A DNA stretch of 41,221 nucleotides from a virus. A program made the translations under genes and the position numbers. The notes under the pieces were generated by a model. It saw only the letters and a list, made by a program, of their open reading frames with translations. It had not been told where the DNA came from and did no database searches. Where the stretch lies: the IMG/VR virus record IMGVR_UViG_3300031228_000002, positions 1 to 41,221 of that record; one strand, 5' to 3'. Shown here piece after piece: positions 810 through 41,221 of this stretch (positions are counted from its first letter, which is position 1; the number at the start of each line of letters is the position of its first letter).

Positions 810-1844
810 TCAGGCGGCGTTTCCGGTGAGGAGCGCGGTCATCTCCCGCAGTTGCGCGGCACCGGCCTGCGCGATGGGGAGGCCGTAGGACTGCTCGAAC
901 TCGGCGTCGAGGTTGTCGAGGCCGACCTTCGCGGCGGCGGCGCGCAACTGGTGCTCGGCGACATCCGCCTCGGACGGGCCCTCGGTGACGCTCTCCACCA
1001 CCACGGCGTCCACGACGCCGTCCTCGTCCGGCTGGTCACCGGCCGGTGCGGGCTTGGCGAGCTGCTGACCCCGGGCGATCAGATACGCGCCCAACTCCTG
1101 CGAGTCCTCGCCCACCTTCACCGTGGCGGCGAGGAGACCGGACGCGTTCGCCTGCCGGTACAGCTCCTTGACCACGGCCTGGTCGGTCGTCGTCCCGGCG
1201 GCGTCGGCGTGGGCCTGCTCAGGCGTGATGGTGTCTTCGCCCTGTTGCGGGCCGGGTGTGGCCCACTGGTCGGTCTGGCCGGGCTCGACACGGCGCAGCT
1301 GCTGCACCGGGGCCTCCACCGGGATCCCGTCCGCGTCAACGTTCGCCCCGAGCTCTTCCGGCGTATAGATCGTGCCCTGCAAGATCTCCGAGCAGGCGGC
1401 GCGCGCTACCTCGGTGATCGCCCGGGCCTTCAACATCGCGGCCGGGAAGTTCTTCCACGTGTCCTTGCCGGTCAGCCTTGCGGCCTGCGCCCGCTCGATC
1501 GTCCACACGACCTCGAAGGTGAAGTCGGGGTCATCGGCGCGGATGATCTGCGCGACCGCGCGCCGGTCGTCGCCGTTGACGCGCAGCTTGTGACCGGCCC
1601 GTCGGACGAGACCGGCGATCAGGTCAGCGGACGCGGTCGGCTTGCCGTTGATGACGTGGATCGACTGCACGGCGGTCAGCGGGGCGACGCCGAGTGTCTG
1701 CCCGTACGAGATGGCCCACAGCAGGTTGGCCGGCTTGCCCTGGTACTGCCGGGGCAGCAGGTCGGAGGCGGCCATGGCCTTGGCGTAGTCCATCTGTGCG
1801 GCGAGGGCGCCGGGTTCGAAGGTGGCGGGGAGATTGGTGGTCAC
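810..1844 (-). CDS. recT: RecT-family single-strand annealing recombinase (344 aa)
   Basis: The N-terminal half fits the RecT pattern (MDYAKAMAASDLLPRQYQGKPANLLWAISYGQTLGVAPLTAVQSIHVINGKPTASADL). GTG start in a GTGA overlap with the upstream stop. Confidence 0.85.
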   Translation of the reverse strand: MTTNLPATFEPGALAAQMDYAKAMAASDLLPRQYQGKPANLLWAISYGQTLGVAPLTAVQSIHVINGKPTASADLIAGLVRRAGHKLRVNGDDRRAVAQIIRADDPDFTFEVVWTIERAQAARLTGKDTWKNFPAAMLKARAITEVARAACSEILQGTIYTPEELGANVDADGIPVEAPVQQLRRVEPGQTDQWATPGPQQGEDTITPEQAHADAAGTTTDQAVVKELYRQANASGLLAATVKVGEDSQELGAYLIARGQQLAKPAPAGDQPDEDGVVDAVVVESVTEGPSEADVAEHQLRAAAAKVGLDNLDAEFEQSYGLPIAQAGAAQLREMTALLTGNAA

Positions 1845-3497: not shown

Positions 3498-3701
3498 TCA
3501 GGCAGCGGCGCGCTGGGCGAGCCGGTCGCCGGCGGTCTTGGCCGACATCCACCGCTCGACATCGCGGACCGCGTAGAGGACTTCGCGTCCGACGCGGACG
3601 CCCTTGGGGCCAAGGCCGCGGTGGCGCATCTGCCTGATGGCGTGGGGGGTCTTACGGATGTGAGCCGCGAGTTCCTTCGTCGTCATGTACGGCGTATCCA
3701 T
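3498..3701 (-). CDS. Excisionase-like HTH protein (candidate Xis/RDF, 67 aa)
   Basis: From ATG 3701. TTKELAAHIRKTPHAIRQMRHRGLGPKGVRVGREVLYAVRDVERWM fits the HTH_17/MerR-type excisionase pattern. It lies next to the cro-like, cI-like and int genes. Confidence 0.6.
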   Translation of the reverse strand: MDTPYMTTKELAAHIRKTPHAIRQMRHRGLGPKGVRVGREVLYAVRDVERWMSAKTAGDRLAQRAAA

Positions 3702-3915
3702 GCCGTTCGCCTCCGTTCGTTTCCGGTTCGAGGTCCTGCACGGTGCAGCCGAGTTGGTTGGCGATTCGTGCGAGGACTTCGGGCTGAGGGTCGCTCTGGC
3801 CGCGTTCGATGCGGGAGAGGTGTGATGCAGAGACTTCGGCTGCGGTCGCGAAGTTGCGCAGGCCGTAGCCGCTGGTTTCGCGTCGCCTCCGGATCCCGGG
3901 TCCATCGGCCTTCAT
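3652..3915 (-). CDS. Cro-like Xre-family HTH regulator (87 aa), first gene of the early operon
   Basis: From ATG 3915. GYGLRNFATAAEVSASHLSRIERGQSDPQPEVLARIANQLGCTVQDL is an HTH_3 motif. It is divergent from the CI-like gene. Confidence 0.7.
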   Translation of the reverse strand: MKADGPGIRRRRETSGYGLRNFATAAEVSASHLSRIERGQSDPQPEVLARIANQLGCTVQDLEPETNGGERHGYAVHDDEGTRGSHP

Positions 3916-4118
3916 GGCGGAGACGATACGCAACGAACGGAAGGGATGCAAGGGGACGCGTTGGGATGGTTTCCGTTCGTGGCGGGGAGTGACGGCGGTG
4001 CTGCTTTCAGGTCACATTCCGGGGGTGCTCTCGCGCGCCGTGCAGGTCACCCTTACTCTGTTGCTGTTTGTTGCGCATCGTTGTGCGCATTTCGTTGACA
4101 GGAGAAGAGGCCACCCCC
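3916..4118. promoter_or_regulatory. Divergent cI-like / cro-like switch region with operator-like repeats
   Basis: A 10-bp inverted repeat acgaacggaa (3933-3942) / ttccgttcgt (3971-3980). Direct caggtcac at 4008-4015 and 4043-4050. TGCGCAT at 4072-4078 and 4084-4090. GC is lower than in the flanks. Confidence 0.6.
3923..3951 (-). promoter_or_regulatory. Candidate early promoter giving a leaderless cro-like mRNA
   Basis: On the minus strand: TTGCAT (3951-3946), a 17-nt spacer, TATCGT (3928-3923), then 7 nt to ATG 3915. Confidence 0.4.
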
Positions 4119-4526
4119 ATGAACCGCGACCCAGAAGCGTGGGCCCGGCTCGGCCGCGCACTCCGCTCCGCACGTGACCACCGAGGACTCACACAGCAAG
4201 AACTCGGAGAGATGGCCGGCACCTCCGGCCGCGCCGTCCAGGACGCAGAGGCCGGCACTGTGCCGAAAGCGCGCATGCCCTACACGCTCGGACGGATCGC
4301 GTCCGCACTCGGCTGGCCAGAGGGCGCCGTCGACGCGGTACTCGAAGGAGCAGCTCCGCCGGGTGAAGGGTGGCGCGATGTTCCGGCGCAGGCCGATGTT
4401 GAGGAGCGGTACGAGTCGATCCTCACGAACGCCATGGTGCGGGCGATGGAGGGGACGCCCGCTGCGGAGATCAAGAAGGCAACGAAGATTGCGTTGGACG
4501 AATTTCGCCGACAGGGCCTCTTGTGA
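4119..4526 (+). CDS. CI-like Xre-family repressor (135 aa)
   Basis: ATG 4119 follows GGAGAAGAGG. RGLTQQELGEMAGTSGRAVQDAEAG is an HTH. Plus strand, upstream of the integrase. Confidence 0.7.
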   Translation: MNRDPEAWARLGRALRSARDHRGLTQQELGEMAGTSGRAVQDAEAGTVPKARMPYTLGRIASALGWPEGAVDAVLEGAAPPGEGWRDVPAQADVEERYESILTNAMVRAMEGTPAAEIKKATKIALDEFRRQGLL

Positions 4527-4651: not shown

Positions 4652-4855
4652 ATGCCCAACCCCAGAGTCTTCACCGCTAACCTCGGGCCCAAAGTCGCCG
4701 CGGTCACCACGCAAATTGATGGGGAACCTGCGGCGGTCATCAACACACAGGCCGCGTACGACATGACGCTCCGCCGCCAGGCGGCGTGGGCGCTCCTGTG
4801 CGTCGGCCTGGACGCCGGACTCATCCTCGGAGCGCTTCATGGGATACGTCGCTGA
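4652..4855 (+). CDS. Small membrane protein between repressor and integrase (67 aa)
   Basis: GGGGAGCAGCAGC precedes the ATG. C-terminal hydrophobic helix AAWALLCVGLDAGLILGALHGI. It overlaps the int start by 17 nt. Confidence 0.5.
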   Translation: MPNPRVFTANLGPKVAAVTTQIDGEPAAVINTQAAYDMTLRRQAAWALLCVGLDAGLILGALHGIRR

Positions 4856-6101
4856 CCGCTGGCACAAGACCCGGCCCGGGCCGGACGAGCCGGAGTGCGG
4901 GGAGCACAAGGGCCGGGTTGCCTCGAAGGCGCACGGCGTCGGCAAGCGATGGCAGGCCCGCTACGACGACCCGAACGGACGCGAGATCACCAGCCTCTGG
5001 GCCACCAAGGCTGAGGCAGAGCGGGAGATCAACAAACAGGAGTCGGCGAAGCAGTCCGGTTCCTGGCTCGACCCGAAAGCCGGACAGATCACGGTAGAAC
5101 GCTTCGCACTGGACAGCTGGCTCCCGGCTCAGAACATCAACGGGCGCTCTGAGGCCGAGTACCTCGGGGCACTCCGTCGCTATCTGTTCCCCGCATGGGG
5201 CAGTCGGCAGATCCGATCCATCAAGCCGTCCGAAGCCGGCGCCTGGCAACAGTCGCTGACCAGCGAGCACAACCTGTCTGGGCAGTACCCGAACCGTGTG
5301 GCCCGGTACGTTCGCGGCGTGTTCAAACTGGCCGTCATCGACCGCGTCATCGCTGTGTCCCCGTTCGAGCAGATCCCAGCGCCGACGCTTGTCGAGTCGA
5401 CAGTCCAGCCGCCGGACGTCGCCGAGGTGAGGCAGCTCATTGCGGCCGCGCACAAGCCGATGTGGGGTGCCCTCCTCGAGGTGACCGCGCTGACCGGACT
5501 GCGGTCGGGAGAGGTGCGCGGCCTGACCGTGGACCGGACCGACTTCCTGCGCCGCACCCTGCATGTCGAGCAGCAGCTCGTCCAGGAGAAGAAGGGCGCC
5601 ATGTACCTGGACAAGCTGAAGACCGGAGCGGGGCGCCGCGTGGTGCCGCTGACGCAGCGCGCGGTCGATGTCCTTGCCGCGCACCTGGCGACCTATCCGC
5701 CGCGTACCGATGGCGACTGGCCGGGGCTCGTGTTCGCGCTGCCGCTCGGGAAACCGATCCAGGAGTCGTCACTCGACTGGGCTATCAAGAACATCTGCCG
5801 CCGCGCCGGGGTGAAGCCGCGGCACTGGCACGAGCTGCGCCACCACTACGCCTCGGTGCTGATCGCCGGGGGTGAGAACCCGAAGGTGGTGCAGAAGCGG
5901 CTCGGGCACAAGGACGTGATGACCACGCTGCGGACGTATGCGCACCTGTTCGCGGAGGCGGAGGAGCAGACGCGATCCGTTCTGGATGCGGCGTGGGCGG
6001 TCCCGGGTGAGACTGGCTCGGAGGCGGAATCTCTTGAGCAGGGCGGAAGGATTCCGGAATCCCGGAGCGGAGAGGGCGATGTTGTGCAGCTCAGGGCATA
6101 G
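4839..6101 (+). CDS. int: Tyrosine integrase (420 aa)
   Basis: C-terminal catalytic motifs HELRHHYASVLIAGGENPKVVQKRLGHKDVMTTLRTYAHLF. Typical actinobacterial N-terminus MGYVADRW. Confidence 0.9.
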   Translation: MGYVADRWHKTRPGPDEPECGEHKGRVASKAHGVGKRWQARYDDPNGREITSLWATKAEAEREINKQESAKQSGSWLDPKAGQITVERFALDSWLPAQNINGRSEAEYLGALRRYLFPAWGSRQIRSIKPSEAGAWQQSLTSEHNLSGQYPNRVARYVRGVFKLAVIDRVIAVSPFEQIPAPTLVESTVQPPDVAEVRQLIAAAHKPMWGALLEVTALTGLRSGEVRGLTVDRTDFLRRTLHVEQQLVQEKKGAMYLDKLKTGAGRRVVPLTQRAVDVLAAHLATYPPRTDGDWPGLVFALPLGKPIQESSLDWAIKNICRRAGVKPRHWHELRHHYASVLIAGGENPKVVQKRLGHKDVMTTLRTYAHLFAEAEEQTRSVLDAAWAVPGETGSEAESLEQGGRIPESRSGEGDVVQLRA

Positions 6102-24319: not shown

Positions 24320-25110
24320 GGTCTCTGCCTGTCTGTCCAGTCCAGCTCTTCGCCCAGCACCACCGGTAGCAGGGAGCACCGGCAGTTGATCACCTCGTTC
24401 GCCGGGCCCGTCGGATCCCCGGGGAACAGGAGTGGCGCCCCGCCCACGATGAACGGCTCCATGAGCAGCGTGCGTTGCCGGTCCGCCTCATTGTGCGTCT
24501 TGCGGGTCCGGCGGTCGTCCGTCGCGAGCCACACCTTGAACGGCGCCACGTCCCCCCGGTCCTCAGCGTCCAGCATTGCCGAGCGGAACACCCCCGCGTT
24601 CACCGCTGCGATCGTCTCCGTGCGCGCCACCGTGCGCGCCCGGTGCGGCCACCGTTCTGACCCGGTGGCGGTGAGGACGGTCTCCACACGGGCGGCCAGG
24701 TCCGGGATGCTCTCGCCCTCACGCAGGCCCCTCTCCAACTCGGCGACGATCAGCGCGTACACCTCGTCCGGTAGGCGCACCAGCCGGTTGCCCACGCTGT
24801 TGAGGTAGTCGGCCACCCACGGATCGCCCACGGGGTCACGGCCACGCACCCGTTGAGCAGCGTCCCGCAGCACCCCGCCGACGGTCGGGACGATCTCCAC
24901 GTCCACTTCGTCGGTCCAGAACGCCTGATGATCCGACACCCGGCCCGGGTCGACCCCACCGCCGCGCAGCACGTCGGGGCGCACCCGGTCGAGGAAGCGG
25001 GTCATGGACCGGAACCAGCGCCGGGCCACCGTGGCCTCCCCCTGGCGGATGAACGCCTGTGCGCGCAGCCGCTGCGGCAGCCGGTCGTCGTCCGGGACCG
25101 GGCTGGTCAC
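24316..25110 (-). CDS. MuF-like / SPP1 gp7-family head morphogenesis protein (264 aa)
   Basis: RTETIAAVNAG ... DDRRTRKTHNEADRQ ... VINCRCSLLP motifs. GTGA overlap with the portal stop. Confidence 0.8.
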   Translation of the reverse strand: MTSPVPDDDRLPQRLRAQAFIRQGEATVARRWFRSMTRFLDRVRPDVLRGGGVDPGRVSDHQAFWTDEVDVEIVPTVGGVLRDAAQRVRGRDPVGDPWVADYLNSVGNRLVRLPDEVYALIVAELERGLREGESIPDLAARVETVLTATGSERWPHRARTVARTETIAAVNAGVFRSAMLDAEDRGDVAPFKVWLATDDRRTRKTHNEADRQRTLLMEPFIVGGAPLLFPGDPTGPANEVINCRCSLLPVVLGEELDWTDRQRP

Positions 25111-26918
25111 CGGCTGCGCCGCAACGCGTCGGCGAGCGTGGCCGGATCATGGGGCTTCCGCTCGGACAGAAGTCGGTAGGTGTACGACGTGAGAGTCATG
25201 TCGAGCCACTCCACCGGCACGCGGAACCCCTCAGCCACGCGGTCGACAAGCGTGAACGACCCCTCCAGCAACGGTGCGACGTCCGTCACCGGGATCACCG
25301 TGTGCAGCTCGTGCTTGGGCGTGGACGCGAACTGGCCCCGGTACTGGCGGGTGAGGAGGCGGCCGCCGGCGCGCGACAGGGCGTCGAACACCACGAGCTC
25401 GGCGGCGGCCACGAGCCCGGCCGGGACGTCGCCTTCGGTGTCCGGCTCCGCGCGCGACGTCGACGGCCCGGCGGCCGGCGTACCCGGCTCCAGCTCGGGC
25501 GCCCCCTCGATGGTCTCGTCGGAGACGCCAGCGGCCGCCGGGGCGATCTCGAACCCGAACAGTGCCTGCCCGACCTTCGGGTCGGCGGCCAGCGTCGGCG
25601 CGCCGATCACGATCCGCTCCAGGCGGCGGAGTTGGATCTCGTCCTCGGAGGGGATCGCGTCGTCGGGGATGCCGGACGCGGCGCGCCGGTAGTCGTCGGA
25701 GATCAGGCCGAGGTCGTACAGGTGGTCCAGGTCCTCAGTCTCACCGGGGCGCTGGACGATCGCGGAGGTGTCCCAGGCAAGGACGTACCGCTCCGGATCC
25801 TGCACGCCCATGGCTTCGAGGACGGGCCGGTACCAGTGCTCGGTGACCGCGTCCGCGATCCGGTCCAACAGGGGCTCGATGAAGATCTGGTAGGTGTCCT
25901 CGGAGATCTGCCACGCGGTCCAGTGGTTCGACTCGGCCTGTGTCCCCTCGGCCACGGGCTTGGGCATGTCGAGCGTGGCGGCCAGCCGGGACAGGGCGTC
26001 ACGGCGCAGCTCGGTGATCGCGGCGTCCATGGCCGTGGAGATGTCGAGGTGCTGGATCTGGCCGATGTACTCGCCCGGGATCTGGAGGACGATCGGCACC
26101 TGCGCGGATGCCTGACCGGGGTCGGAGAGGGATGCCTCCATGGCTTCCATGATGAAGAGCATGATGGCCTGCGCCACGGACTCGGCGTCGCCCTGCGGGA
26201 AGTCGATCTCCTGCGGGACCATCAGGAGGCCGTTGGCCGCGAGGCGGGAGTCGAGGCGGGCCGCGAGGTTCTGTGACGCCTTCTCGATCTCCCGCAGCGG
26301 TACGAGCGCCGGGCGCACCGCGCTGGTGGCCTGGGCCTGCTTGGCCGGGTGCGGCTTCCACACGCGGATCAGCCGGTCGTTGGGGCCCAGTTCGACGGGC
26401 AGCATCGTCTTGGGGTCGGTGTACGTCCACCGGTCGCCCTTGGGCTTCATCTCGTCGCCGGACAGCACGAGCCACTCATCAGGCTGCAGCACCCCACCCC
26501 GGGCCGGGCGGGGGCGGATGACGATGAAGCTCTCGCCGGGGATCTGCCAGTGGGTGGCGATGAGCTCTTGCATCTGCGCGCGCTGCGCCTGCCCGCCGAA
26601 CGCCAGGGCGGCTGCTGCCTGGGCCTGCTTGTTGTCGGTGGGCCCGGCGACCTTCCCGGTCTCCGGGTCCGTCTCAGCGGCGTACAGGTCCGCCTTGGAC
26701 ACGGCGTTGGCGATCCACTGGACCGGCGCCGACAGTTCGCCCACGGTGTCGTAGAAGTACCAGGCGTCTCGCTGCCAGCCCTGCGTCCCGGAGGCCTTAC
26801 GGGACGTGGCCAGCGCCCGCACACCAGGCCCGGACAAGGGCATGGCGGCGGCCATCACCGCCCGGGGTGCCTGGCTCGGTTCCGTGCGGGGGCCCCTCAG
26901 CCGGTCCAGTACGCCCAT
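25107..26918 (-). CDS. Portal protein (603 aa)
   Basis: Size and position after the terminase. WQRDAWYFYDTVGELSAPVQWIANAVSKADLY is a portal-like N-domain. Confidence 0.85.
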   Translation of the reverse strand: MGVLDRLRGPRTEPSQAPRAVMAAAMPLSGPGVRALATSRKASGTQGWQRDAWYFYDTVGELSAPVQWIANAVSKADLYAAETDPETGKVAGPTDNKQAQAAAALAFGGQAQRAQMQELIATHWQIPGESFIVIRPRPARGGVLQPDEWLVLSGDEMKPKGDRWTYTDPKTMLPVELGPNDRLIRVWKPHPAKQAQATSAVRPALVPLREIEKASQNLAARLDSRLAANGLLMVPQEIDFPQGDAESVAQAIMLFIMEAMEASLSDPGQASAQVPIVLQIPGEYIGQIQHLDISTAMDAAITELRRDALSRLAATLDMPKPVAEGTQAESNHWTAWQISEDTYQIFIEPLLDRIADAVTEHWYRPVLEAMGVQDPERYVLAWDTSAIVQRPGETEDLDHLYDLGLISDDYRRAASGIPDDAIPSEDEIQLRRLERIVIGAPTLAADPKVGQALFGFEIAPAAAGVSDETIEGAPELEPGTPAAGPSTSRAEPDTEGDVPAGLVAAAELVVFDALSRAGGRLLTRQYRGQFASTPKHELHTVIPVTDVAPLLEGSFTLVDRVAEGFRVPVEWLDMTLTSYTYRLLSERKPHDPATLADALRRSR

Positions 26919-27215: not shown

Positions 27216-28670
27216 TCATCCCGCACCGGCCTTGCGGCGCCGTTCTCTTGCCTGCCGTGCCCGCTCCAGCGGGTGCACAGTCCCGGCTGCGCCGCGCATG
27301 CCGCCGCGCTGGTGGGGTGCGGCAATCGCGGCCTCGCCCCGGTCGTACAGTTTCACGTGCCGGGCCACGGCGTGCACGAGCGCGTCGACCCGGTCGGGGC
27401 TGTCGCTGTGCTCTTCGGGGATCCAGGTGCACATCTGGTCTTCGAGCTCGTGGAACTCTTCGGCGTGCACCGTGCGGTGCTGCTCGTACCGGGCCGCGAT
27501 CGGCTGCGCCCGCAGCTTCTTGCCCTGGCTCGCGTTGACCCGCTCCACGGGCATGGGGCCCTTGTTGCCCCGGTCCTTCCACACGGACCTGAGAGCCGCT
27601 TCGATCCAGTCCTTCCCGCCGTTGTCCTCCACGACGACCGTGGCGGCACCCCAGCGGGCCAGCATGTCGAAGGCGCGGTTGCCTGCCCGGTTCGGGGAGA
27701 GCTGCTCGGACTGGTCGTCCAGGACGTAGTCCCGGCCGTCCACGCCACGGGCCACGACGACGAGACCGGTCTCGTCCCCCTTACCGGTGCCGGCCGGGTC
27801 CATGCCGACCGTGACCGTGCGGAACTCGGGCAGCGGCTGCGCGGGGTCGTGGTGGATGATGTCGGCCCGCTTCCACAGGGCGCCCGGCAGGTCGTCCAGG
27901 ACGACGGCGTGGAGCTCCTGCGCGCCGAGCGTCGTGCCCTCGTACTTGGCCACGACGGCGCGGCGGAAGGTGGGGGCGAGGTTGTGGAGGTTGTCGTAGG
28001 TCGAGCCGCGGACGACCGCGGTCATCTCGTCCTTCAACAGGGCCTTGATCAGGGGCAGGGGCCGGGGTGTGGTGGTGATGCAGATCCGGGGGTGATCGCC
28101 GAGGCGCATGCCGAGTTGCAGCATGTCCCAGGCGTACTGGAGCCGCCGCCAGGACGCGAGTTCGTCCAACCAGCCGTAGTGGTGCTGGGGTCCGCGGAGC
28201 CGGTCTGGTTCGTCGGCGGAGTAGCAGATCTGGATGGCGCCGTTGGGGTAGGTGAGGCGGCGTTTGGACGGCTCGTACAGGGGCCGGAAGGTGGCGGGGG
28301 CGCAGGCCATGATCCCGGACTCGCCCTCGACGAGGATGTCCCGGGTGTCGGCCGCCGTGGGTCCGACGAGCGCCCCGCGCTCCAGGTTCCGGGCCATGGA
28401 GATCGCCCACTCGGCGCCGGTGCGAGTCTTGCCCCAGCCTCGGCCGGCGAGGGCGAGCCACACGTCCCACAGGTCGCCTTCGGGGGGCCGTTGGTCGGCT
28501 CGCGAGTGCGCCCCTGTGCGGCCGGGGTGGGGGCGGCCGTCGCACTGGGGGTCGGGGCAGAGCCAGGGGACGCGGCCGGACTCGCGGTCCTGGACCATCC
28601 GTTCGAGGGCGGCGTCGACCCGGAGGAGTTCGTCCGGCGAGAGTGCCGACAGCTCTGCCCGGCTGATCAC
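27216..28670 (-). CDS. terL: Terminase large subunit (484 aa)
   Basis: GTG 28670 is in a GTGA overlap with the TerS stop. Walker A-like LAGRGWGKT. Nuclease-domain pattern VGMDPAGTGKGDETGLVVV ... DRVDALVHAV. Confidence 0.9.
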   Translation of the reverse strand: MISRAELSALSPDELLRVDAALERMVQDRESGRVPWLCPDPQCDGRPHPGRTGAHSRADQRPPEGDLWDVWLALAGRGWGKTRTGAEWAISMARNLERGALVGPTAADTRDILVEGESGIMACAPATFRPLYEPSKRRLTYPNGAIQICYSADEPDRLRGPQHHYGWLDELASWRRLQYAWDMLQLGMRLGDHPRICITTTPRPLPLIKALLKDEMTAVVRGSTYDNLHNLAPTFRRAVVAKYEGTTLGAQELHAVVLDDLPGALWKRADIIHHDPAQPLPEFRTVTVGMDPAGTGKGDETGLVVVARGVDGRDYVLDDQSEQLSPNRAGNRAFDMLARWGAATVVVEDNGGKDWIEAALRSVWKDRGNKGPMPVERVNASQGKKLRAQPIAARYEQHRTVHAEEFHELEDQMCTWIPEEHSDSPDRVDALVHAVARHVKLYDRGEAAIAAPHQRGGMRGAAGTVHPLERARQARERRRKAGAG

Positions 28671-29140
28671 TGCGCCTCCAGGCGCTCCAGGTTGGCCAGC
28701 ACCTTCTCGAGGAGTCCGGCTTCCTTGCCCTCGGCCTTCATGCGCAGCGCGGCTTCCTGGGCCTTCGTGGCGGCGGAGAACGCCTGGGTCCACCGCACCG
28801 ACGGGTCGGTGTTGGTGGCCTCGAACTCGGTGAGCCGGTTGGCCAGATGATCAAGCAGTCGCTCGGACAGTTCGAGGTGCCGGCCACGGACGCGGCGCAG
28901 CTCGTCGGCGTGACCGTCGGTGCTGGCGGTTTCCATGTGCCGGTCATAGGCCAGGACTCGGGCGCCCCACTCGTTCCGGCTGGACCACTGGCCGACCACG
29001 GTGGTGGATTTGTCCAGCTCCTGTGCCACCTTGCGCACGGTGCGTGAGGGGCCCAGATTCAGGTACACCCGGAAGGCTTCGTAGGCGGGCGTCGACTCTT
29101 CGTCCCGGCGTGTCCAGGGGTAGGGCTCGTCCGTCGTCAT
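28667..29140 (-). CDS. terS: Terminase small subunit (157 aa)
   Basis: AYEAFRVYLNLGPSRTVRKVAQELDKSTTVVGQWSSRNEWGARVLAYD is an HTH typical of actinophage TerS. RBS GGGAGGG. Confidence 0.75.
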   Translation of the reverse strand: MTTDEPYPWTRRDEESTPAYEAFRVYLNLGPSRTVRKVAQELDKSTTVVGQWSSRNEWGARVLAYDRHMETASTDGHADELRRVRGRHLELSERLLDHLANRLTEFEATNTDPSVRWTQAFSAATKAQEAALRMKAEGKEAGLLEKVLANLERLEAQ

Positions 29141-29149
29141 CGGCCCTCC

Positions 29150-29407
29150 CTACTTGATCCACACTGCTGCGAGGGCGCCCAGTACGGTGACCGCCGCCCC
29201 TCCCAGTATGGCCGTGAGCCACGCGGGCAGCTGGCGGGACTTGAGGGCGTTCATGTCGGTACGCAGCTCGGACACGTCGTCCTTCACGTCGGTCATGTCG
29301 CCCTGGACCTCTGCCAGGGCCCGGCCGTGGGCGCGCTGCTCCTGGTAGATGTCCCACAGGGACACAAACACCCCGTTGTTCGGGCCCGAGTCGGGGACGG
29401 TGGTCAC
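29150..29407 (-). CDS. Tail-anchored membrane protein of the lysis cassette (85 aa; holin- or lysis-accessory-like)
   Basis: GTG 29407 is in a GTGA overlap with the endolysin stop. Coiled-coil N-terminus and C-terminal TM LPAWLTAILGGAAVTVLGALAAVWI. Confidence 0.55.
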   Translation of the reverse strand: MTTVPDSGPNNGVFVSLWDIYQEQRAHGRALAEVQGDMTDVKDDVSELRTDMNALKSRQLPAWLTAILGGAAVTVLGALAAVWIK

Positions 29408-30348
29408 GACTGCAGTCTCCCCGCGAGCGCGTCGAGAACGGCCGGGACGACGAGGCGGGACACCTCCGTCGCGACGGCCTTGATCTGTGCCTGGGTCAGG
29501 CCGGTCGTGGCCAGGGCGTCGAGCTTGCGATCCATCGAGGCGACGCGCTTTTCGATCGCGCGGACCTTGCTGGTGGTGCCGTAGATGTGGGTGCCGAGGG
29601 CCCAGTAGTGGCCGGGGTTGTTCGGGTTGGGGTCCCAGTCGGCGGCGTCCTGCGGGGCTTTCCATATGCCGTCGCGGGTGGCGAGCCGGCGGATGTCGTC
29701 GTCGGTCAGGGCCATTTCGTCCTCCTCGGGCGGGGTTGGTTCGGCGGGGCGCCCGAGCTGGAAGCCGACGAGTGCCCGCATGTCGTCGTGGCCCGGGTAG
29801 CCGGGCCCCAGCGGGTCGATCTTCCCGGGCTGCCATTCCGCGTGGGCGAGCACGGACCGCTCGGACCAGCCGTGCGCTTCGCAGATCGCTGCGGCCGCCT
29901 TGACCATGGCGTCGATCTGGGCGGCCGGCCAAGGGTCTTTTCCGTTGCCGAGGTTGATGCACTCGAAGCCGTAGAAGTGCCGGTTGCCGTCGGTGTCCGC
30001 CTGGTTGTCGGGCGGGAGTTCGCGCTCGTCGATGATGGCGCGCAGCACGTCGCCGTCGCCGGACCCGGCGTGGTTCGCGCGGCCGTTGCCGACGAGGTGA
30101 ATCGTTCCTGCCTTGTCGATGACGCCGTGGCAGAGGGGGCCGGGGAGGGAGGCGTGGCCGTTGTAGCAGAGCTCGACGGACGAGGCGGTGCCGGTCGTCA
30201 CGGTGTGGTGGAGCATGACGCCGTGTGCGGGGCCCCAGGGGCCTTTGTCGTTGCGGTTGTGGGTGCGCCACGACCGGTGCTCGACAACGCGTAGGCCCTT
30301 TGACCGCAGGGCCCTCAGGAGTTGATCCGCGTTGAGCGGAGTCGCCAT
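29404..30348 (-). CDS. Endolysin, N-acetylmuramoyl-L-alanine amidase (Amidase_2/PGRP-like) with C-terminal domain (314 aa)
   Basis: HGVMLHHTV ... HLVGNGRANHAG ... FYGFECIN ... VLAHAEW is an amidase_2 pattern. First gene of the late operon. Confidence 0.8.
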   Translation of the reverse strand: MATPLNADQLLRALRSKGLRVVEHRSWRTHNRNDKGPWGPAHGVMLHHTVTTGTASSVELCYNGHASLPGPLCHGVIDKAGTIHLVGNGRANHAGSGDGDVLRAIIDERELPPDNQADTDGNRHFYGFECINLGNGKDPWPAAQIDAMVKAAAAICEAHGWSERSVLAHAEWQPGKIDPLGPGYPGHDDMRALVGFQLGRPAEPTPPEEDEMALTDDDIRRLATRDGIWKAPQDAADWDPNPNNPGHYWALGTHIYGTTSKVRAIEKRVASMDRKLDALATTGLTQAQIKAVATEVSRLVVPAVLDALAGRLQS

Positions 30349-30456: not shown

Positions 30457-30487
30457 GGGCCCGAGTAGCGCCGCAGCCAGCGAGCGC

Positions 30488-30541
30488 GGGTGGGATGGGT
30501 GCAGGCTACTGCGGGGGTGGGATGGGTGCAGGCTACTGCGG
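30488..30541. repeat. Perfect 27-bp tandem duplication (x2, plus a partial third start)
   Basis: gggtgggatgggtgcaggctactgcgg at 30488-30514 and 30515-30541, non-coding. Confidence 0.95.
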
Positions 30542-35439: not shown

Positions 35440-35702
35440 AGGTAGGTCCCCTTCACGGTGATGGTGTCGACGGGTTTGGCGGGGGTCAGGTTGTGGAGGT
35501 CGCGGAACGCCTGCTCGTCCTCACGGATGCGGGCGGTCAGGATGGCGGCGGCGTCCTGCGCGGCTGTGGCGGCATGGACGGAGTGCGGCCGGGCCGCCTG
35601 CTCGGCACGAACAGCGCGGCGGCGGGGCGGGTACAGGAAGTGCCCGAGCGGCAGGCTGGCTATGACCGCGATCAGGGCGACGAACGCGACGACGGCGGTC
35701 AT
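35436..35702 (-). CDS. N-terminally anchored small membrane protein (88 aa)
   Basis: ATGA overlap. Hydrophobic N-terminus MTAVVAFVALIAVIASLPLG. Confidence 0.6.
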   Translation of the reverse strand: MTAVVAFVALIAVIASLPLGHFLYPPRRRAVRAEQAARPHSVHAATAAQDAAAILTARIREDEQAFRDLHNLTPAKPVDTITVKGTYL

Positions 35703-36127
35703 GAGGCGAGGGCCATCGGCTCGGATGCCCCGTCGCGGGCTTCACGGCGCTGCTGGCGCGCTGCCCGGCGTTCGGCGGACGCCTGGGCCTTCGCGTCCGT
35801 GCACGGCCCGCACGGGGTCTCGCGGTATTTCAGGTGCTCGCGGTATGCCGGGTCGCTGCCGCACGGCTGGCGGATGCGGCCCTCGTGGTCGAGCCACCAG
35901 CCGCGGCCGCGGTGGAGTTGGAGCCGTTCGGTGGCGGTGAGCCCACCCCACGTGCCCCACTGCTCATGCTCGTCGATGGCCCAGGTCTGGCAGGCGGCGA
36001 GGAGCGGGCAGGCGTGGCAGAGTGCCTTGGCGGCCTGTTCGTCGTCGTGCTCGCGGGACCAGAAGAGAGCGGCGGTGTCGGGGGTGCAGGAGGGGCGGCC
36101 GGTGGTGAGGAAGTCGGGCAGGTGCAT
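35699..36127 (-). CDS. whiB: WhiB-like protein fused to a CGS-x3-Y-x2-H...C-x2-C module (142 aa)
   Basis: ATG 36127 follows GAGAGGA. C-x(n)-CHACPLLAAC ... GTWGGLTATER is a WhiB pattern. The 246-aa track start was rejected. Confidence 0.7.
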   Translation of the reverse strand: MHLPDFLTTGRPSCTPDTAALFWSREHDDEQAAKALCHACPLLAACQTWAIDEHEQWGTWGGLTATERLQLHRGRGWWLDHEGRIRQPCGSDPAYREHLKYRETPCGPCTDAKAQASAERRAARQQRREARDGASEPMALAS

Positions 36128-36177
36128 GGCCGGTCCTCTCGGGAGGGGTGGCGGGTGGGTGTGGTGTGCTTGGGCTG

Positions 36178-36208
36178 GGGACGGCCGCGGGTCCAGCGCG
36201 GCCGTCCC
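36178..36208 (-). terminator. Intra-operon hairpin
   Basis: Perfect 12-bp stem gggacggccgcg / cgcggccgtccc with a 7-nt loop, after the stop at 36217. Confidence 0.5.
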
Positions 36209-36216
36209 GTCGGCGC

Positions 36217-36612
36217 TCACGAGGCGGGGGTGTCGGCGGGCTTGGCGTTTGCGAGCTTCAGCAGGACGGCGGCGTGACAGTGGTCGGGCTCGCCCGGCTG
36301 GGGAAGCGGGCAGGTACAGGCGAGGTCCTTGCCGCGCAGAGCGTGGAGTTCGGCCAGGACGCGGCGCCGGTCGAGGACCTGGCGCCCGACACGGTAGGTC
36401 TCCTCGAACCAGCCGCCTTCGGTGCCGACGCGAAGCCACTCGGCGTAGCTGTCGGCGCAGGCGCGGTGCGGCTCACTCCACTCCGCCTCGATGGCCTGCT
36501 GAATGGTGAACGGGTTCCCGAACCGGCTGGGCCGACTGACGATCACGCAGTTCTCGGGCTTGCGCCAGCCCTTGGTGCGCTTGCGCTGGATACGGACGGG
36601 CTTGTCGGTCAT
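36217..36612 (-). CDS. DUF4326-like protein (131 aa)
   Basis: ATG 36612. RIQRKRTKGWRKPENCVIVSRPSRFGNPF ... RGKDLACTCPL ... CHAAVLL pattern. Confidence 0.7.
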   Translation of the reverse strand: MTDKPVRIQRKRTKGWRKPENCVIVSRPSRFGNPFTIQQAIEAEWSEPHRACADSYAEWLRVGTEGGWFEETYRVGRQVLDRRRVLAELHALRGKDLACTCPLPQPGEPDHCHAAVLLKLANAKPADTPAS

Positions 36613-36619
36613 CGGGTTC

Positions 36620-36648
36620 TTCTCCTTCGGTGGGTGGGTGCCGGTCAG
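36620..36648 (-). repeat. Gene-junction repeat, copy A
   Basis: ttctccttcggtgggtgggtgccggtcag. It contains the TGA of the upstream gene and the SD of the downstream gene. Confidence 0.9.
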
Positions 36649-37100
36649 TCGCGGCCGGTGAACTGGCGCATGGACTCGACGGCCATCTCGTAGAGGCTTC
36701 GCACGCCGATGAGGAGCGCGTCCGCGTCCCGCTCGGTGCGGACGTTGGCGATGGCGTCGAAGAGGGCGTAGGCCGTATCCCGCTGGCCGTTCATCCAAGC
36801 GGTGGAGAACTGGGCGGCGAACCGAGGTCCGGCAGGCACCTCGTTGGCGTCCGCGGGCAGTCCGGCCCGGAGGGCGATGAGCCCGAAGCCGTCGGCGGTC
36901 GGCGCCTGGCGCCTCGCGTTCATGGCGATGCTCTCGGCGAGGGCGGCACAGAGCGCTGCGGTGGGTGTGAGTCCTCGCAGGATCATCGGCTTGAGCATGT
37001 TGAGGCCGGTCTGGGGGTTGCCGGTCATGCCGTGCGCGAGGGCCGCCATGATCGTCTCGGAGTCGTCGGGGAGCGGTTCGGTCGGGATCGGATTCGTCAT
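36645..37100 (-). CDS. Hypothetical protein (151 aa)
   Basis: ATG 37100 follows the GAAGGAGAA of junction repeat B. Its stop lies inside repeat A. Confidence 0.65.
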   Translation of the reverse strand: MTNPIPTEPLPDDSETIMAALAHGMTGNPQTGLNMLKPMILRGLTPTAALCAALAESIAMNARRQAPTADGFGLIALRAGLPADANEVPAGPRFAAQFSTAWMNGQRDTAYALFDAIANVRTERDADALLIGVRSLYEMAVESMRQFTGRD

Positions 37101-37103
37101 GAC

Positions 37104-37140
37104 TTCTCCTTCGGTGGGTGGGTGCCGGTCAGGCGGCGGG
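37104..37140 (-). repeat. Gene-junction repeat, copy B
   Basis: ttctccttcggtgggtgggtgccggtcaggcggcggg, identical over 37 nt to copy C. Confidence 0.9.
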
Positions 37141-37449: not shown

Positions 37450-37486
37450 TTCTCCTTCGGTGGGTGGGTGCCGGTCAGGCGGCGGG
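37450..37486 (-). repeat. Gene-junction repeat, copy C
   Basis: Same 37-mer as copy B. Here it is entirely non-coding, because the upstream gene stops at 37499 with TAA. Confidence 0.9.
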
Positions 37487-37498
37487 GGTGGTGGGTGG

Positions 37499-38077
37499 TT
37501 ACGCGGCAGGAACAGCAGCAGGGGCGGGCACGGTCGACCCGGTCGTGCGGAGCCGGCGGTCGGCGTCCGTGTTGGCGTACCGGCAGGCGTCGCACGCCTT
37601 CTCGCCGTTGCGCCGGTGCTTCTGGTAGCCGGGGCGGGTGCCGCATGCGACGGGTCGCCCCTTGGCCTTCGCCCGGGAGGCTGCTTTGACCTTCCGAATC
37701 CTCGCGTTGTGCGCGGCCCGACACGCGTCGTCGACCGGTTCACCCCAGCGGATGTGCCGCTCGTAGGCGCCGGCCGTGCCGCATGGGGAGAGCGGCTTCC
37801 CGCCGGTGCGGCGCCGCGCCTGCTGGGGCACCGGGCCGCGACGCTTCTTCGCCAAGGCGGCCCGCTGCTTCGGCGACAGGCCGCCACGGATACCGGCACG
37901 GCTCTCAGCGCGTTCGTTCTTCTCCTCGGTAAGCGCTGCCTCGAGGCATGCTCCGCGTACCGGGCAAGCGGCACAGAACTTGCGCGCCTCGCGCAACTCG
38001 TCGCCCGTCTCGGCGAGGAACAGATCGGGGTCGGCCGTGGCGCACGCGGCGCCACGCTGCCAGTCGCTGCGGGACAT
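37499..38077 (-). CDS. whiB: WhiB-like protein fused to two CGT-x3-Y-x2-H-x3-GE-x2-C-x2-C modules (192 aa)
   Basis: WQRGAACATADPDLFLAETGDELREARKFCAACPVRGACLEAAL is a WhiB pattern. C-terminal modules CGTAGAYERHIRWGEPVDDACRAA and CGTRPGYQKHRRNGEKACDACRYA. Confidence 0.8.
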   Translation of the reverse strand: MSRSDWQRGAACATADPDLFLAETGDELREARKFCAACPVRGACLEAALTEEKNERAESRAGIRGGLSPKQRAALAKKRRGPVPQQARRRTGGKPLSPCGTAGAYERHIRWGEPVDDACRAAHNARIRKVKAASRAKAKGRPVACGTRPGYQKHRRNGEKACDACRYANTDADRRLRTTGSTVPAPAAVPAA

Positions 38078-38093: not shown

Positions 38094-38873
38094 TCAGGCG
38101 GCGCAGTGGGTGTGGGTGGTGCGGCCGGGGCGGGGGACCATGCGTTCGTGGCAGCGGGCGCAGCGGATGAAGTCGGCGGGCTGCTGCTCGTGGTGGTCTT
38201 GTTCTTGGGGGGAGTCGATCTTTTGGGCTTCGGGAGCGCCCACTACCTGAGGTTTGAAGATCACCCCGGCCCCGTCATGGGAAAGCTCTTGGGTAATACC
38301 TGGGTTGTTCGGGTCGCGGGGGCCCGAACCATTCGGGTCGCGGGGGCCCGAACCCATACGGGTCGCGGGGGCCCGAACTTCTTCCGGCGCCGGGTCCTCA
38401 AGTTCGGGTCGCGGTCCCCCGAACTGGTTCGGGTCGCGGTCCCCCGAACTTTCGGTGGGCTCCTGCCACGGCGCGGGGCTCTTCCCGGACGGCCGGCGGC
38501 TGCTCTTCAGCGACGACTCGGCGGCTCCCCAGTCGGGCGACGGGTCGACCATGAGGACGTACAGGGTGGGCTTCCCGCGCCGCTGCTCGCCCTTCACGAG
38601 GATCACTCCGGCGGCGATGGCGGCGTTGATGTAGCGGCGGGCGTCCTTCTCGCTGGCGCCCGATGCCTTCGCGATGTCCTGGATCCGGATCGGCTTGTCC
38701 GGGAAGCGGAGTTCACCGTTGGCGTTGGCCATGGCGCGCACGGCGTAGAGCAGGGTGAGGAAGCCGCGCCGCAGGGCGGTGGGCATCTCTCGTGACCAGC
38801 GCCATGCGAGGGCGTTCCCGTACGCGTTGGGGACGCTCCCGGCGGCGCGGGTGGCCTGCTCGTCTGTGCTCAA
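38094..38873 (-). CDS. Winged-helix replication-initiator-like protein with internal repeats (259 aa)
   Basis: TTG 38873 follows ACGGAGA; the alternative start is ATG 38786. N-terminal wHTH-like LLYAVRAMANANGELRFPDKPIRIQDIAKASGASEKDARRYINAAIAAGVILV. C-terminal CxxC...HC. Confidence 0.6.
   Translation of the reverse strand: MSTDEQATRAAGSVPNAYGNALAWRWSREMPTALRRGFLTLLYAVRAMANANGELRFPDKPIRIQDIAKASGASEKDARRYINAAIAAGVILVKGEQRRGKPTLYVLMVDPSPDWGAAESSLKSSRRPSGKSPAPWQEPTESSGDRDPNQFGGPRPELEDPAPEEVRAPATRMGSGPRDPNGSGPRDPNNPGITQELSHDGAGVIFKPQVVGAPEAQKIDSPQEQDHHEQQPADFIRCARCHERMVPRPGRTTHTHCAA
38307..38449. repeat. Five 23-bp iteron-like repeats (candidate origin of replication) inside the initiator-like gene
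   Basis: (g/a)t(t/a)cgggtcgcgg(ggg/tcc)cccgaac at 38307, 38331, 38356, 38402 and 38427. Each has inverted ends GTTCGGG...CCCGAAC. Confidence 0.6.
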
Positions 38874-40411: not shown

Positions 40412-40659
40412 GGCTTCACCTCGGCGCGCATCGCCGGGCCCTTGCGCGGAGCCTGCGGCTTCGGCTGCTCCCGGTTGAGGCGCTCACGCAGGGCGGCGAT
40501 CTCCTGATCCTTCGCCTCCAACTGCACGACCAGGCGGCCGACGACGCGCTTCGCGGACTCCTTCTCTTCGCGCTCCTCCTGGAGCCAGTCCGCGTACAGG
40601 GAGGCGCGGGCCTCAGCGGTACGGCGCCGGGCAAACACCCAGTCCGTGAGCCAGCTCAT
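40408..40659 (-). CDS. Coiled-coil protein (83 aa)
   Basis: ATG 40659 is in an ATGA overlap. The 110-aa track start was rejected. Confidence 0.55.
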   Translation of the reverse strand: MSWLTDWVFARRRTAEARASLYADWLQEEREEKESAKRVVGRLVVQLEAKDQEIAALRERLNREQPKPQAPRKGPAMRAEVKP

Positions 40660-41204
40660 GCGCGGGCCCCCGCCCCGGGCTGCGCGGGCAGTACGGCAGC
40701 GGCCGGCCCGGCAGGCAGCGGCAGCGCGCCCGTTCGCCACGCCTCGCCGATCGCGGCCTTCCCCTCATCCGGGACGGTCAGTCGCGTGTACGCCGCGCGG
40801 CCCTGCATCACGACGCCAGGCACCTCGTGGATGACGCCCGACTCGGGGTCGGCCCACTCGGCTGTACCAGCGGCCGTGAGCGCGGCGAGCACCTTCTTCT
40901 GGAACCCGGGCTTCACCTCGGTGACGAACCGGCGGGTGATCTCGCTGCCGTAGTTCTCAAGGACCCAGGTGGTGAACTTGTCGGGGTCGGTGACGGCGGC
41001 GGTGGGCTTGGGCTGGACGAGGCTCACGGTGCCGACGTCGGTGCTGTCGTCGAGGCTGACGGTGATCTTCTGGGTTCCGGTCTCGGCCTTGGCCTCCCGC
41101 AGGCCGGCTTCCAGTTCCTTCTTCGCGGTCTTCAGTTGGTCGCCGATGGCGTCGGCGAGGGTGGAGAGGACGGCGACGGTGCGCGCGGTGTCCTTGAGGC
41201 TCAT
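40656..41204 (-). CDS. Hypothetical early protein (182 aa)
   Basis: ORF track. AAGGAGA RBS. Its 5' end is duplicated at 1-78 by the terminal overlap. Confidence 0.7.
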   Translation of the reverse strand: MSLKDTARTVAVLSTLADAIGDQLKTAKKELEAGLREAKAETGTQKITVSLDDSTDVGTVSLVQPKPTAAVTDPDKFTTWVLENYGSEITRRFVTEVKPGFQKKVLAALTAAGTAEWADPESGVIHEVPGVVMQGRAAYTRLTVPDEGKAAIGEAWRTGALPLPAGPAAAVLPAQPGAGARA

Positions 41205-41221
41205 GTGTGGTCTCCTTGGGG
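41127..41221. repeat. Terminal direct repeat, right copy
   Basis: Identical to 1-95. Confidence 0.95.

Follow-up and report, generated by a model that had tools for sequence, protein, structure and literature searches.

Locus and gene content

The stretch of DNA analysed here, which is called the window throughout, is 41,221 bp long with about 70% GC and looks like the genome of a temperate Streptomyces siphophage, in which nearly all genes are carried by the minus strand (Table 1). RecT, an integrase and a repressor are encoded by the phage. The early operon seems to pass position 1 and to resume from position 41221, leading from excise over RecT and a gene at 143-769 to a gene at 40656-41204 and onward; since it crosses the ends, the window is probably the phage genome in circularly permuted form, and not an integrated prophage having attL and attR at its ends. 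The gene under study is located in this early operon, between a 111-aa ORF on one side and a WhiB gene on the other, and it encodes a 259-aa protein with a high GC3 of 0.85. Five 23-nt units of the form GTTCGGG-N9-CCCGAAC (in gene orientation), each having 7-bp inverted ends, are found within it.

Table 1. Features of the window discussed in the text; iteron copies are numbered in gene order.
Feature	Coordinates	Strand	Remarks
RecT	810-1844
Excise	3498-3701
XRE-type regulators	3652-3951 and 4068-4526
Tyrosine integrase	4839-6101	plus
Portal	25107-26918
Large terminase	27216-28793		longest ORF; GC3-adjusted start gives 27216-28670
Small terminase	28667-29140
Endolysin	29404-30348
WhiB genes	37499-38077 and 35699-36220
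259-aa initiator-like protein gene	38094-38873	minus	from the ORF list; TTG start; homologues begin MSTDEQ
C-terminal small Cys/His module	38097-38177	minus	aa 233-259; AF2 block with pLDDT 71-84, short strands
Relatively low-GC tract	38187-38306		directly after copy 5; candidate DNA-unwinding region
Iteron copy 5	38307-38329	minus	GTTCGGGCCCCCGCGACCCGAAC; frame +1 = GSGPRDPN
Iteron copy 4	38331-38353	minus	GTTCGGGCCCCCGCGACCCGAAT; frame +1 = GSGPRDPN
Iteron copy 3	38356-38378	minus	GTTCGGGCCCCCGCGACCCGTAT; frame 0 = VRAPATRM
Iteron copy 2	38402-38424	minus	GTTCGGGGGACCGCGACCCGAAC, DNA identical to copy 1; frame +2 = QFGGPRPEL
Iteron copy 1	38427-38449	minus	GTTCGGGGGACCGCGACCCGAAC; frame +1 = SSGDRDPN
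N-terminal winged-helix DNA-binding domain	38499-38837	minus	aa 13-125; AF2 block with pLDDT 75-91
Ser74 codon	38652-38654	minus	residue just before the recognition helix; candidate specificity determinant

Some other features were noticed during the survey of the window. ARAGORN called a tRNA-His at 955-1041 (minus strand, 87 nt) and a tRNA-Ser at 41005-41097 (plus strand, 93 nt), and both are probably false positives because they lie inside well-supported ORFs, namely RecT and the phrog_11955 gene at 40656-41204. An element of about 30 nt occurs three times, at 36620-36649, 37104-37133 and 37450-37479 in plus strand coordinates, and reads on the minus strand as CTGACCGGCACCCACCCACCGAAGGAGAA. 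Its copies stand directly 5′ of the start codons of three successive early genes of the minus strand, which start at 36612, 37100 and 37446; the element includes a Shine-Dalgarno sequence and is similar to the "start-associated sequences" known from some actinophages. A 27-nt tandem duplicate GCG(C/G)GGGTGGGATGGGTGCAGGCTACT is present at 30484-30537, in the gap that separates the endolysin gene from its upstream neighbour, in perfect register and with 96% identity, and may have a role in regulation or packaging. No match to the region was obtained by megablast in the phage collection.

Distribution and conservation of the repeat units

The five starts, the spacings of 24, 25, 46 and 25 nt on the plus strand and the inverted ends agree exactly with the sequence-only reading of this DNA made earlier, whose description of the spacing as about two helical turns has to be corrected, 24-25 bp being about 2.3 turns. 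All five units lie within the minus strand ORF, where they begin at gene nucleotides 424, 449, 495, 520 and 544 (0-based from the first base of the start codon) and fall successively in the reading frames 1, 2, 0, 1 and 1. When the 41 kb window was searched with TTCGGGTCGCGGNNNCCCGAAC allowing up to three mismatches, only the five units and one reverse-strand self-match were returned; shuffled sequences gave an expectation of 0.12 matches, and none of 100 shuffles reached 6.

For comparison, 90 related loci were collected from genomes and viral contigs, to which the phages OnionKnight and Chymera were added. At least four units are present in 81 of the 84 distinct homologous genes (40-96% amino-acid identity). 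Most of these genes have five units at the positions and in the frames of the window gene, the commonest spacing being 25/46/25/24 or 36/46/25/24. Copy 5 is the best conserved across the relatives, and the right arm of copy 3 is degenerate in nearly all of them. When each locus was searched with its own consensus, 288 sites were found in the gene and none outside it in 717 kb of flanks. In Chymera gp45 (33% identity) and in the remote members P0183 and P0185 a different palindromic repeat occupies the same linker.

It may be asked whether the repeats are a mere reflection of a repetitive low-complexity linker with no function as DNA, a doubt that the sequence-only reading had raised itself, and the encoded segment is indeed disordered and rich in Gly, Pro and Asp. 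Four observations contradict this explanation, which is given practically no weight here. Firstly, a single unit is translated in three different frames into three unrelated peptides (SSGDRDPN, QFGGPRPEL and VRAPATRM, then GSGPRDPN twice). Secondly, the central 9 nt have 30 different consensus forms between genes, with a mean identity of 0.888 within a gene versus 0.568 between genes, and the centres being nearly uniform within a gene and varied between genes, the array evolves in concert across all three frames. Thirdly, certain copies are inverted, each being the exact reverse complement of the copy beside it (copy 1 in L016, L017, L020 and OnionKnight; copy 4 in L019). Fourthly, the usual coding signature vanishes inside the repeats, where third codon positions are conserved like first and second ones: the mean pairwise nucleotide identity at codon positions 1/2/3 in 61 genes is 0.72/0.80/0.58 in the N-domain and flat in both parts of the iteron, with 0.88/0.83/0.81 in the arms and 0.60/0.62/0.61 in the centres. 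Selection acts on the repeats as DNA; they are phage-specific and confined to this gene, and their sequence co-varies with residue 74 of the encoded protein as described below. They are almost certainly functional DNA sites.

A subfamily of longer proteins (340-516 aa; L027, L029, L070, L076, L083 and L089) has the iteron GTTCGGTCCACAG..., which contains GTCCACA. The motif matches the DnaA box of Streptomyces, TTGTCCACA, at 7 of 9 positions; this likeness may be due to chance.

Architecture and family of the encoded protein

The 259-aa protein was modelled by AlphaFold2 (AF2) with 26 homologues. In the N-terminal domain the helix-turn-helix is formed by helices 64-71 and 75-88, followed by wing strands 91-94 and 104-107. 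Residues 139-232 are disordered (pLDDT below 50) and include the approximately 142-190 stretch encoded by the iterons, which places the repeats inside a linker as had been proposed from the letters alone. The small C-terminal module has four residues, C238, C241, H254 and C257, which are invariant in the 26 homologues, and this invariance suggests that the module is probably a zinc ribbon; a host replication factor may be contacted there.

The model was searched by Foldseek, and its matches agree with the model on the winged-helix N-terminus that the sequence-only reading had suspected. Against the PDB, the top matches are MarR-type winged helices, together with the RepA_N initiators 5kbj, 4pql and 4pt7 (E about 1e-3 to 5e-3 overall and about 4e-3 for the three RepA structures, the winged-helix fold being generic). 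Against BFVD, phage HTH proteins were found at E 1e-5 to 1e-3, some of which are named replication protein O (phage Min27), lambda O N-terminal domain or replication initiator; those named O have E about 2e-4 and low TM-scores, half of the model being disordered. Profile searches gave little for the window protein and the 26 members: Pfam returned only FaeA and HTH_36 below threshold, NCBIfam nothing relevant to the 259-aa protein, neither of the two an O-family match, and RepA_N (PF06970) was not matched at E up to 0.05-0.1 in the 26 members. The PDB, searched by sequence with the family profile, gave PefI alone at E = 1.

The family has 240 homologues in Streptomyces prophages and phages, and those of OnionKnight (gp46) and Chymera (gp45) are both annotated "hypothetical protein". 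When 1.84 billion representative proteins were searched exhaustively by HMM, just 70 clusters were obtained, which indicates a small and isolated family. The PHROG matches of the window protein are marginal (phrog_270 at E 0.0019, the "O-like" phrog_391 at E 0.0068), and 12 of the 26 close homologues match phrog_391 "replication initiation O-like" with a best E of 2.3e-6. Two of the 70 clusters, the distant P0183 and P0185, have the complete architecture together with palindromic iterons of their own. Their N-domains match 9-11 PHROG families at E down to 1e-9 (P0183 versus phrog_391, E 1.8e-9), nearly all of them annotated as replication initiator, O-like, primosomal or DnaD-like; the 15 families matched by distant members comprise 10 of replication initiators or loaders and one regulator, these PHROG names being annotations and not functions established by test.

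The plasmid collection gave a single match, a stand-alone N-domain homologue of 127 aa with 36% identity (L093, 4971-5354 of plasmid CP109187.1 of S. cellulosae), located near a transfer-protein gene. The linker, the iterons and the zinc ribbon are all missing from it, and several similar proteins of about 125 aa are known (P0174-P0186). Being an N-domain only and standing beside a transfer gene, it was set aside as uninformative about replication.

Probable recognition of the repeats by the protein

Iteron types were sorted against residue 74 in 61 genes, with attention to iteron positions 8-9 and 15-16. Asp at residue 74 accompanies GG..xC iterons in 29 genes, Arg accompanies CC..GG iterons in 13, and Ser, Asn or Ala accompany ..GA iterons in 17; the exceptions are two genes having Asp with ..GA iterons. 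When the iteron-encoded columns are excluded, residue 74 is the top column for mutual information with these positions. On a neighbour-joining tree from the rest of the protein, it changes at 11 of the 12 inferred switches of iteron class, and its parsimony coupling of 0.92 ranks first among 141 variable columns (median 0.33). The symmetric positions 8/16 and 9/15 change together, giving G-C, C-G and T-A types, as expected if a dimer reads the two half-sites. From this co-variation it is very probable that the repeats are read by the protein which they help to encode.

A control of the co-variation on WhiB was uninformative because the WhiB columns are hypervariable. Another candidate reader was the neighbouring 298-aa multi-HTH gene, which is present at only 5 of 60 related loci and so cannot be the general binder.

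Two genomes carry two prophages each having the gene with different iteron classes, CCACCGCGG versus GGACACACC in Streptomyces boetiae (L018 and L048) and GGACCGCGA versus CCACAGAGG in S. boncukensis (L015 and L038). With n = 2 genomes, this fits orthogonal specificities of co-resident elements.

The dyads might also act as hairpins in mRNA or in single-stranded DNA, by translational pausing, RNA stability or a single-strand initiation signal, and not as binding sites in the duplex. A GC-rich stem of 7-9 bp is possible in each unit, positions 8/16 occur in three Watson-Crick types (G-C 141, C-G 65, T-A 46), and copy 2 folds better than its shuffles (z = -3.5). Against this, the whole region as RNA is no more stable than shuffles (z = -1.18), and copies 3 and 4 are no better than theirs (z = 0.10 and -0.04). 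The outer arms of these two copies are unpaired across the relatives (Watson-Crick fraction 0.2-0.5), GAAC...GAAC variants break the pairing, and the stem sequence is nearly invariant instead of freely co-varying. Dyad symmetry is equally expected of a dimer binding site, and the unpaired centre is the part that changes in concert and follows a protein residue, which indicates sequence-specific recognition by a protein. A reading by RNA structure was rejected on the stability of the block and the lost pairing of the outer arms, and the hairpin explanation as a whole is very improbable.

Evidence for a proposed origin of replication

We consider that the 143-bp block, with its five dyad-symmetric sites inside the gene of their putative binding protein, is the replication origin of the phage, with a probability of about 0.7. 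The sequence-only reading had proposed an origin in the style of lambda O and ori, and this is well supported by the selection on the repeats as DNA, the co-variation with residue 74 and the PHROG initiator matches of distant members. That reading had also seen no recognisable polymerase, helicase or primase in the genome, and about 46 ORFs of the window, when scanned, indeed yielded no polymerase, helicase, primase or loader; the 259-aa protein is the only candidate initiator. No P-like helicase-loader partner was found in the phage.

The protein might instead be a transcription regulator which binds within its own gene, for autoregulation or as a block of the early operon, and has no role in replication. 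MarR-type repressors are its closest fold, 7 of 26 members match phrog_2030 "transcriptional regulator" at E about 0.002, and any binding inside the gene would necessarily affect its transcription. However, five or six tandem dyads spread over 140 bp of coding linker are unlike known repressor arrangements, and the promoter regions have no sites. The PHROG families of the distant members (10 of 15 initiators or loaders against one regulator) point the other way too, and the phage would be left with neither an identifiable initiator nor an identifiable origin. Autoregulation and origin function can moreover coexist, and a purely regulatory role is unlikely.

Another explanation takes the array for a centromere-like site of parS type with a winged-helix centromere binder, or for a packaging site recognised by terminase. 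TubR-like winged-helix binders are among the weak fold matches (Foldseek rank 42), and type III centromeres are typically tandem arrays of sites. But no ParA, TubZ or ParM motor gene is nearby, and the phage, which has integrase, excise and repressor, integrates, so that partition is not needed. The terminase genes lie 9 kb away in a context of their own, and the PHROG links favour replication initiators; both roles have very little chance of being right.

For the origin, a possible site of unwinding is offered by the tract next to copy 5. The GC content of 38199-38298 is 0.56 versus the window mean of 0.697, which is in the lowest 0.64% of 100-nt windows, and a dip to a mean of 0.53-0.65 is found at the equivalent place in 61 homologous genes; the tract is still above 50% GC (about 53-60%) and also codes for partly conserved protein. 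DnaA boxes (YYVTCCACA) were searched in the window and found at two distant sites, fewer than the chance expectation, with none at the repeats. The GC skew has no switch at the repeat position and is uninformative here, since nearly all genes are on one strand. The modest depth of the GC dip, the lack of DnaA boxes and of a P-like partner, the generic fold and the weak sequence links of the window protein to characterised initiators count against an origin.

For the working of this origin we infer physical binding, origin firing, a site of unwinding and a role of the C-terminus, in the following manner. After induction or infection the early operon would make the 259-aa protein, whose N-terminal winged-helix dimers would bind each 23-bp site at the core CGGGnn-N5-nnCCCG, and Ser74, standing just before the recognition helix, may read iteron positions 8-9 and 15-16. 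Once bound, the dimers would as an array distort the DNA and open the adjacent lower-GC tract. The C-terminal Cys/His module may then recruit the host helicase, primase or loader, a step which is proposed because the phage encodes no replication enzymes. The protein stretch encoded by the iterons would serve as a disordered linker, with whatever sequence the DNA sites happen to give in three frames.

A wider but less probable reading is that the family represents a self-contained one-gene replicon of Streptomyces phages. In such a replicon, specificity and origin would co-diversify through a residue-74 code (Asp, Arg and Ser/Asn against positions 8-9/15-16), and the host replisome would be recruited by a minimal zinc ribbon with no helicase loader from the phage. 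If this is true, there would be dozens of mutually orthogonal replicons, perhaps through competition or incompatibility of co-resident prophages, and the route of initiation would be one not described for actinobacterial phages.

Value of the analysis

1. For temperate Streptomyces phages there is practically no annotation of origins and initiators, and the gene of this family is called "hypothetical protein" in OnionKnight, in Chymera and in hundreds of prophages. A candidate origin and its candidate initiator are provided here on one fragment of less than 800 bp, which is directly testable.

2. Across the whole family, such loci can be found by one rule, which asks for a dyad repeat array where the linker of a winged-helix/zinc-ribbon protein is encoded. 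About 30 natural iteron variants are available for the candidate one-residue specificity code, which, if validated, may provide orthogonal compact replicons for the genetic tools of Streptomyces.

3. The locus is an unusually clean case of a DNA code overriding a protein code, where one site is read in three frames within one protein.

Comparison with known systems

The literature was searched, though not exhaustively, and no account was found that describes this family or reports iterons within a gene of a Streptomyces phage. The theta plasmid pWTY27 of Streptomyces replicates by repAB and iterons, which its Rep binds specifically (PMC3583192). Replicons of this type have the host genus in common with the window phage, and their proteins have no detectable homology to the 259-aa protein.

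The RepA_N plasmids of Firmicutes (pSK41, pTZ2162, pAD1) and the RepA of Vibrio PLE resemble the present system through the fold matches 5kbj, 4pql and 4pt7. Many RepA_N plasmids reportedly have their iterons in the central part of repA itself. In RepA_N initiators the N-terminal winged helix binds semi-palindromic direct repeats, which converge on a poly-A tract, and the host machinery is recruited by a C-terminal domain that is specific to the host (PMC7145576). The window protein differs by having no PF06970 match, GC-rich iterons, a host of another phylum and another C-terminal domain. With the DnaD-like and phage "replication initiation protein" PHROGs (phrog_391, 270, 1032, 186 and 8102) the likeness lies in the N-terminal winged helix of P0183 and P0185, at E 1e-5 to 1e-9, whereas the window protein reaches these families only at E 0.002-0.007.

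In lambdoid phages, including the Stx phages, the centre of the initiator gene is occupied by tandem O iterons with an AT-rich tract after them, and the iterons are bound by dimers of O through its N-terminal domain; the segment encoded by the iterons is a linker, and extra iterons lengthen O (PMC7466680). The window gene is alike in having the putative binding sites inside the gene of the DNA-binding protein, where they encode the linker, and in its proposed reliance on the host replisome. Its protein gave weak matches to PHROG "O-like" and BFVD "replication protein O" entries, but no significant direct sequence match to lambda O. Lambda iterons are 19-bp and bent by A-tracts, whereas the present units are 23 bp and GC-rich with arms of 7-9 bp, and their five copies are read in three frames. 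The tract called AT-rich in lambda is here merely relatively low in GC (about 55%). The C-terminus is not a P-type loader-binding domain but a 27-aa CxxC...HxxC module, and the gene downstream encodes WhiB in place of a P-like helicase loader. What is new is probably an unannotated member of the known class having the origin inside the initiator gene, which is distinguished by three details: the translation of one site in three frames, the C-terminus of probable zinc-ribbon type and the correlation of specificity with a single residue.
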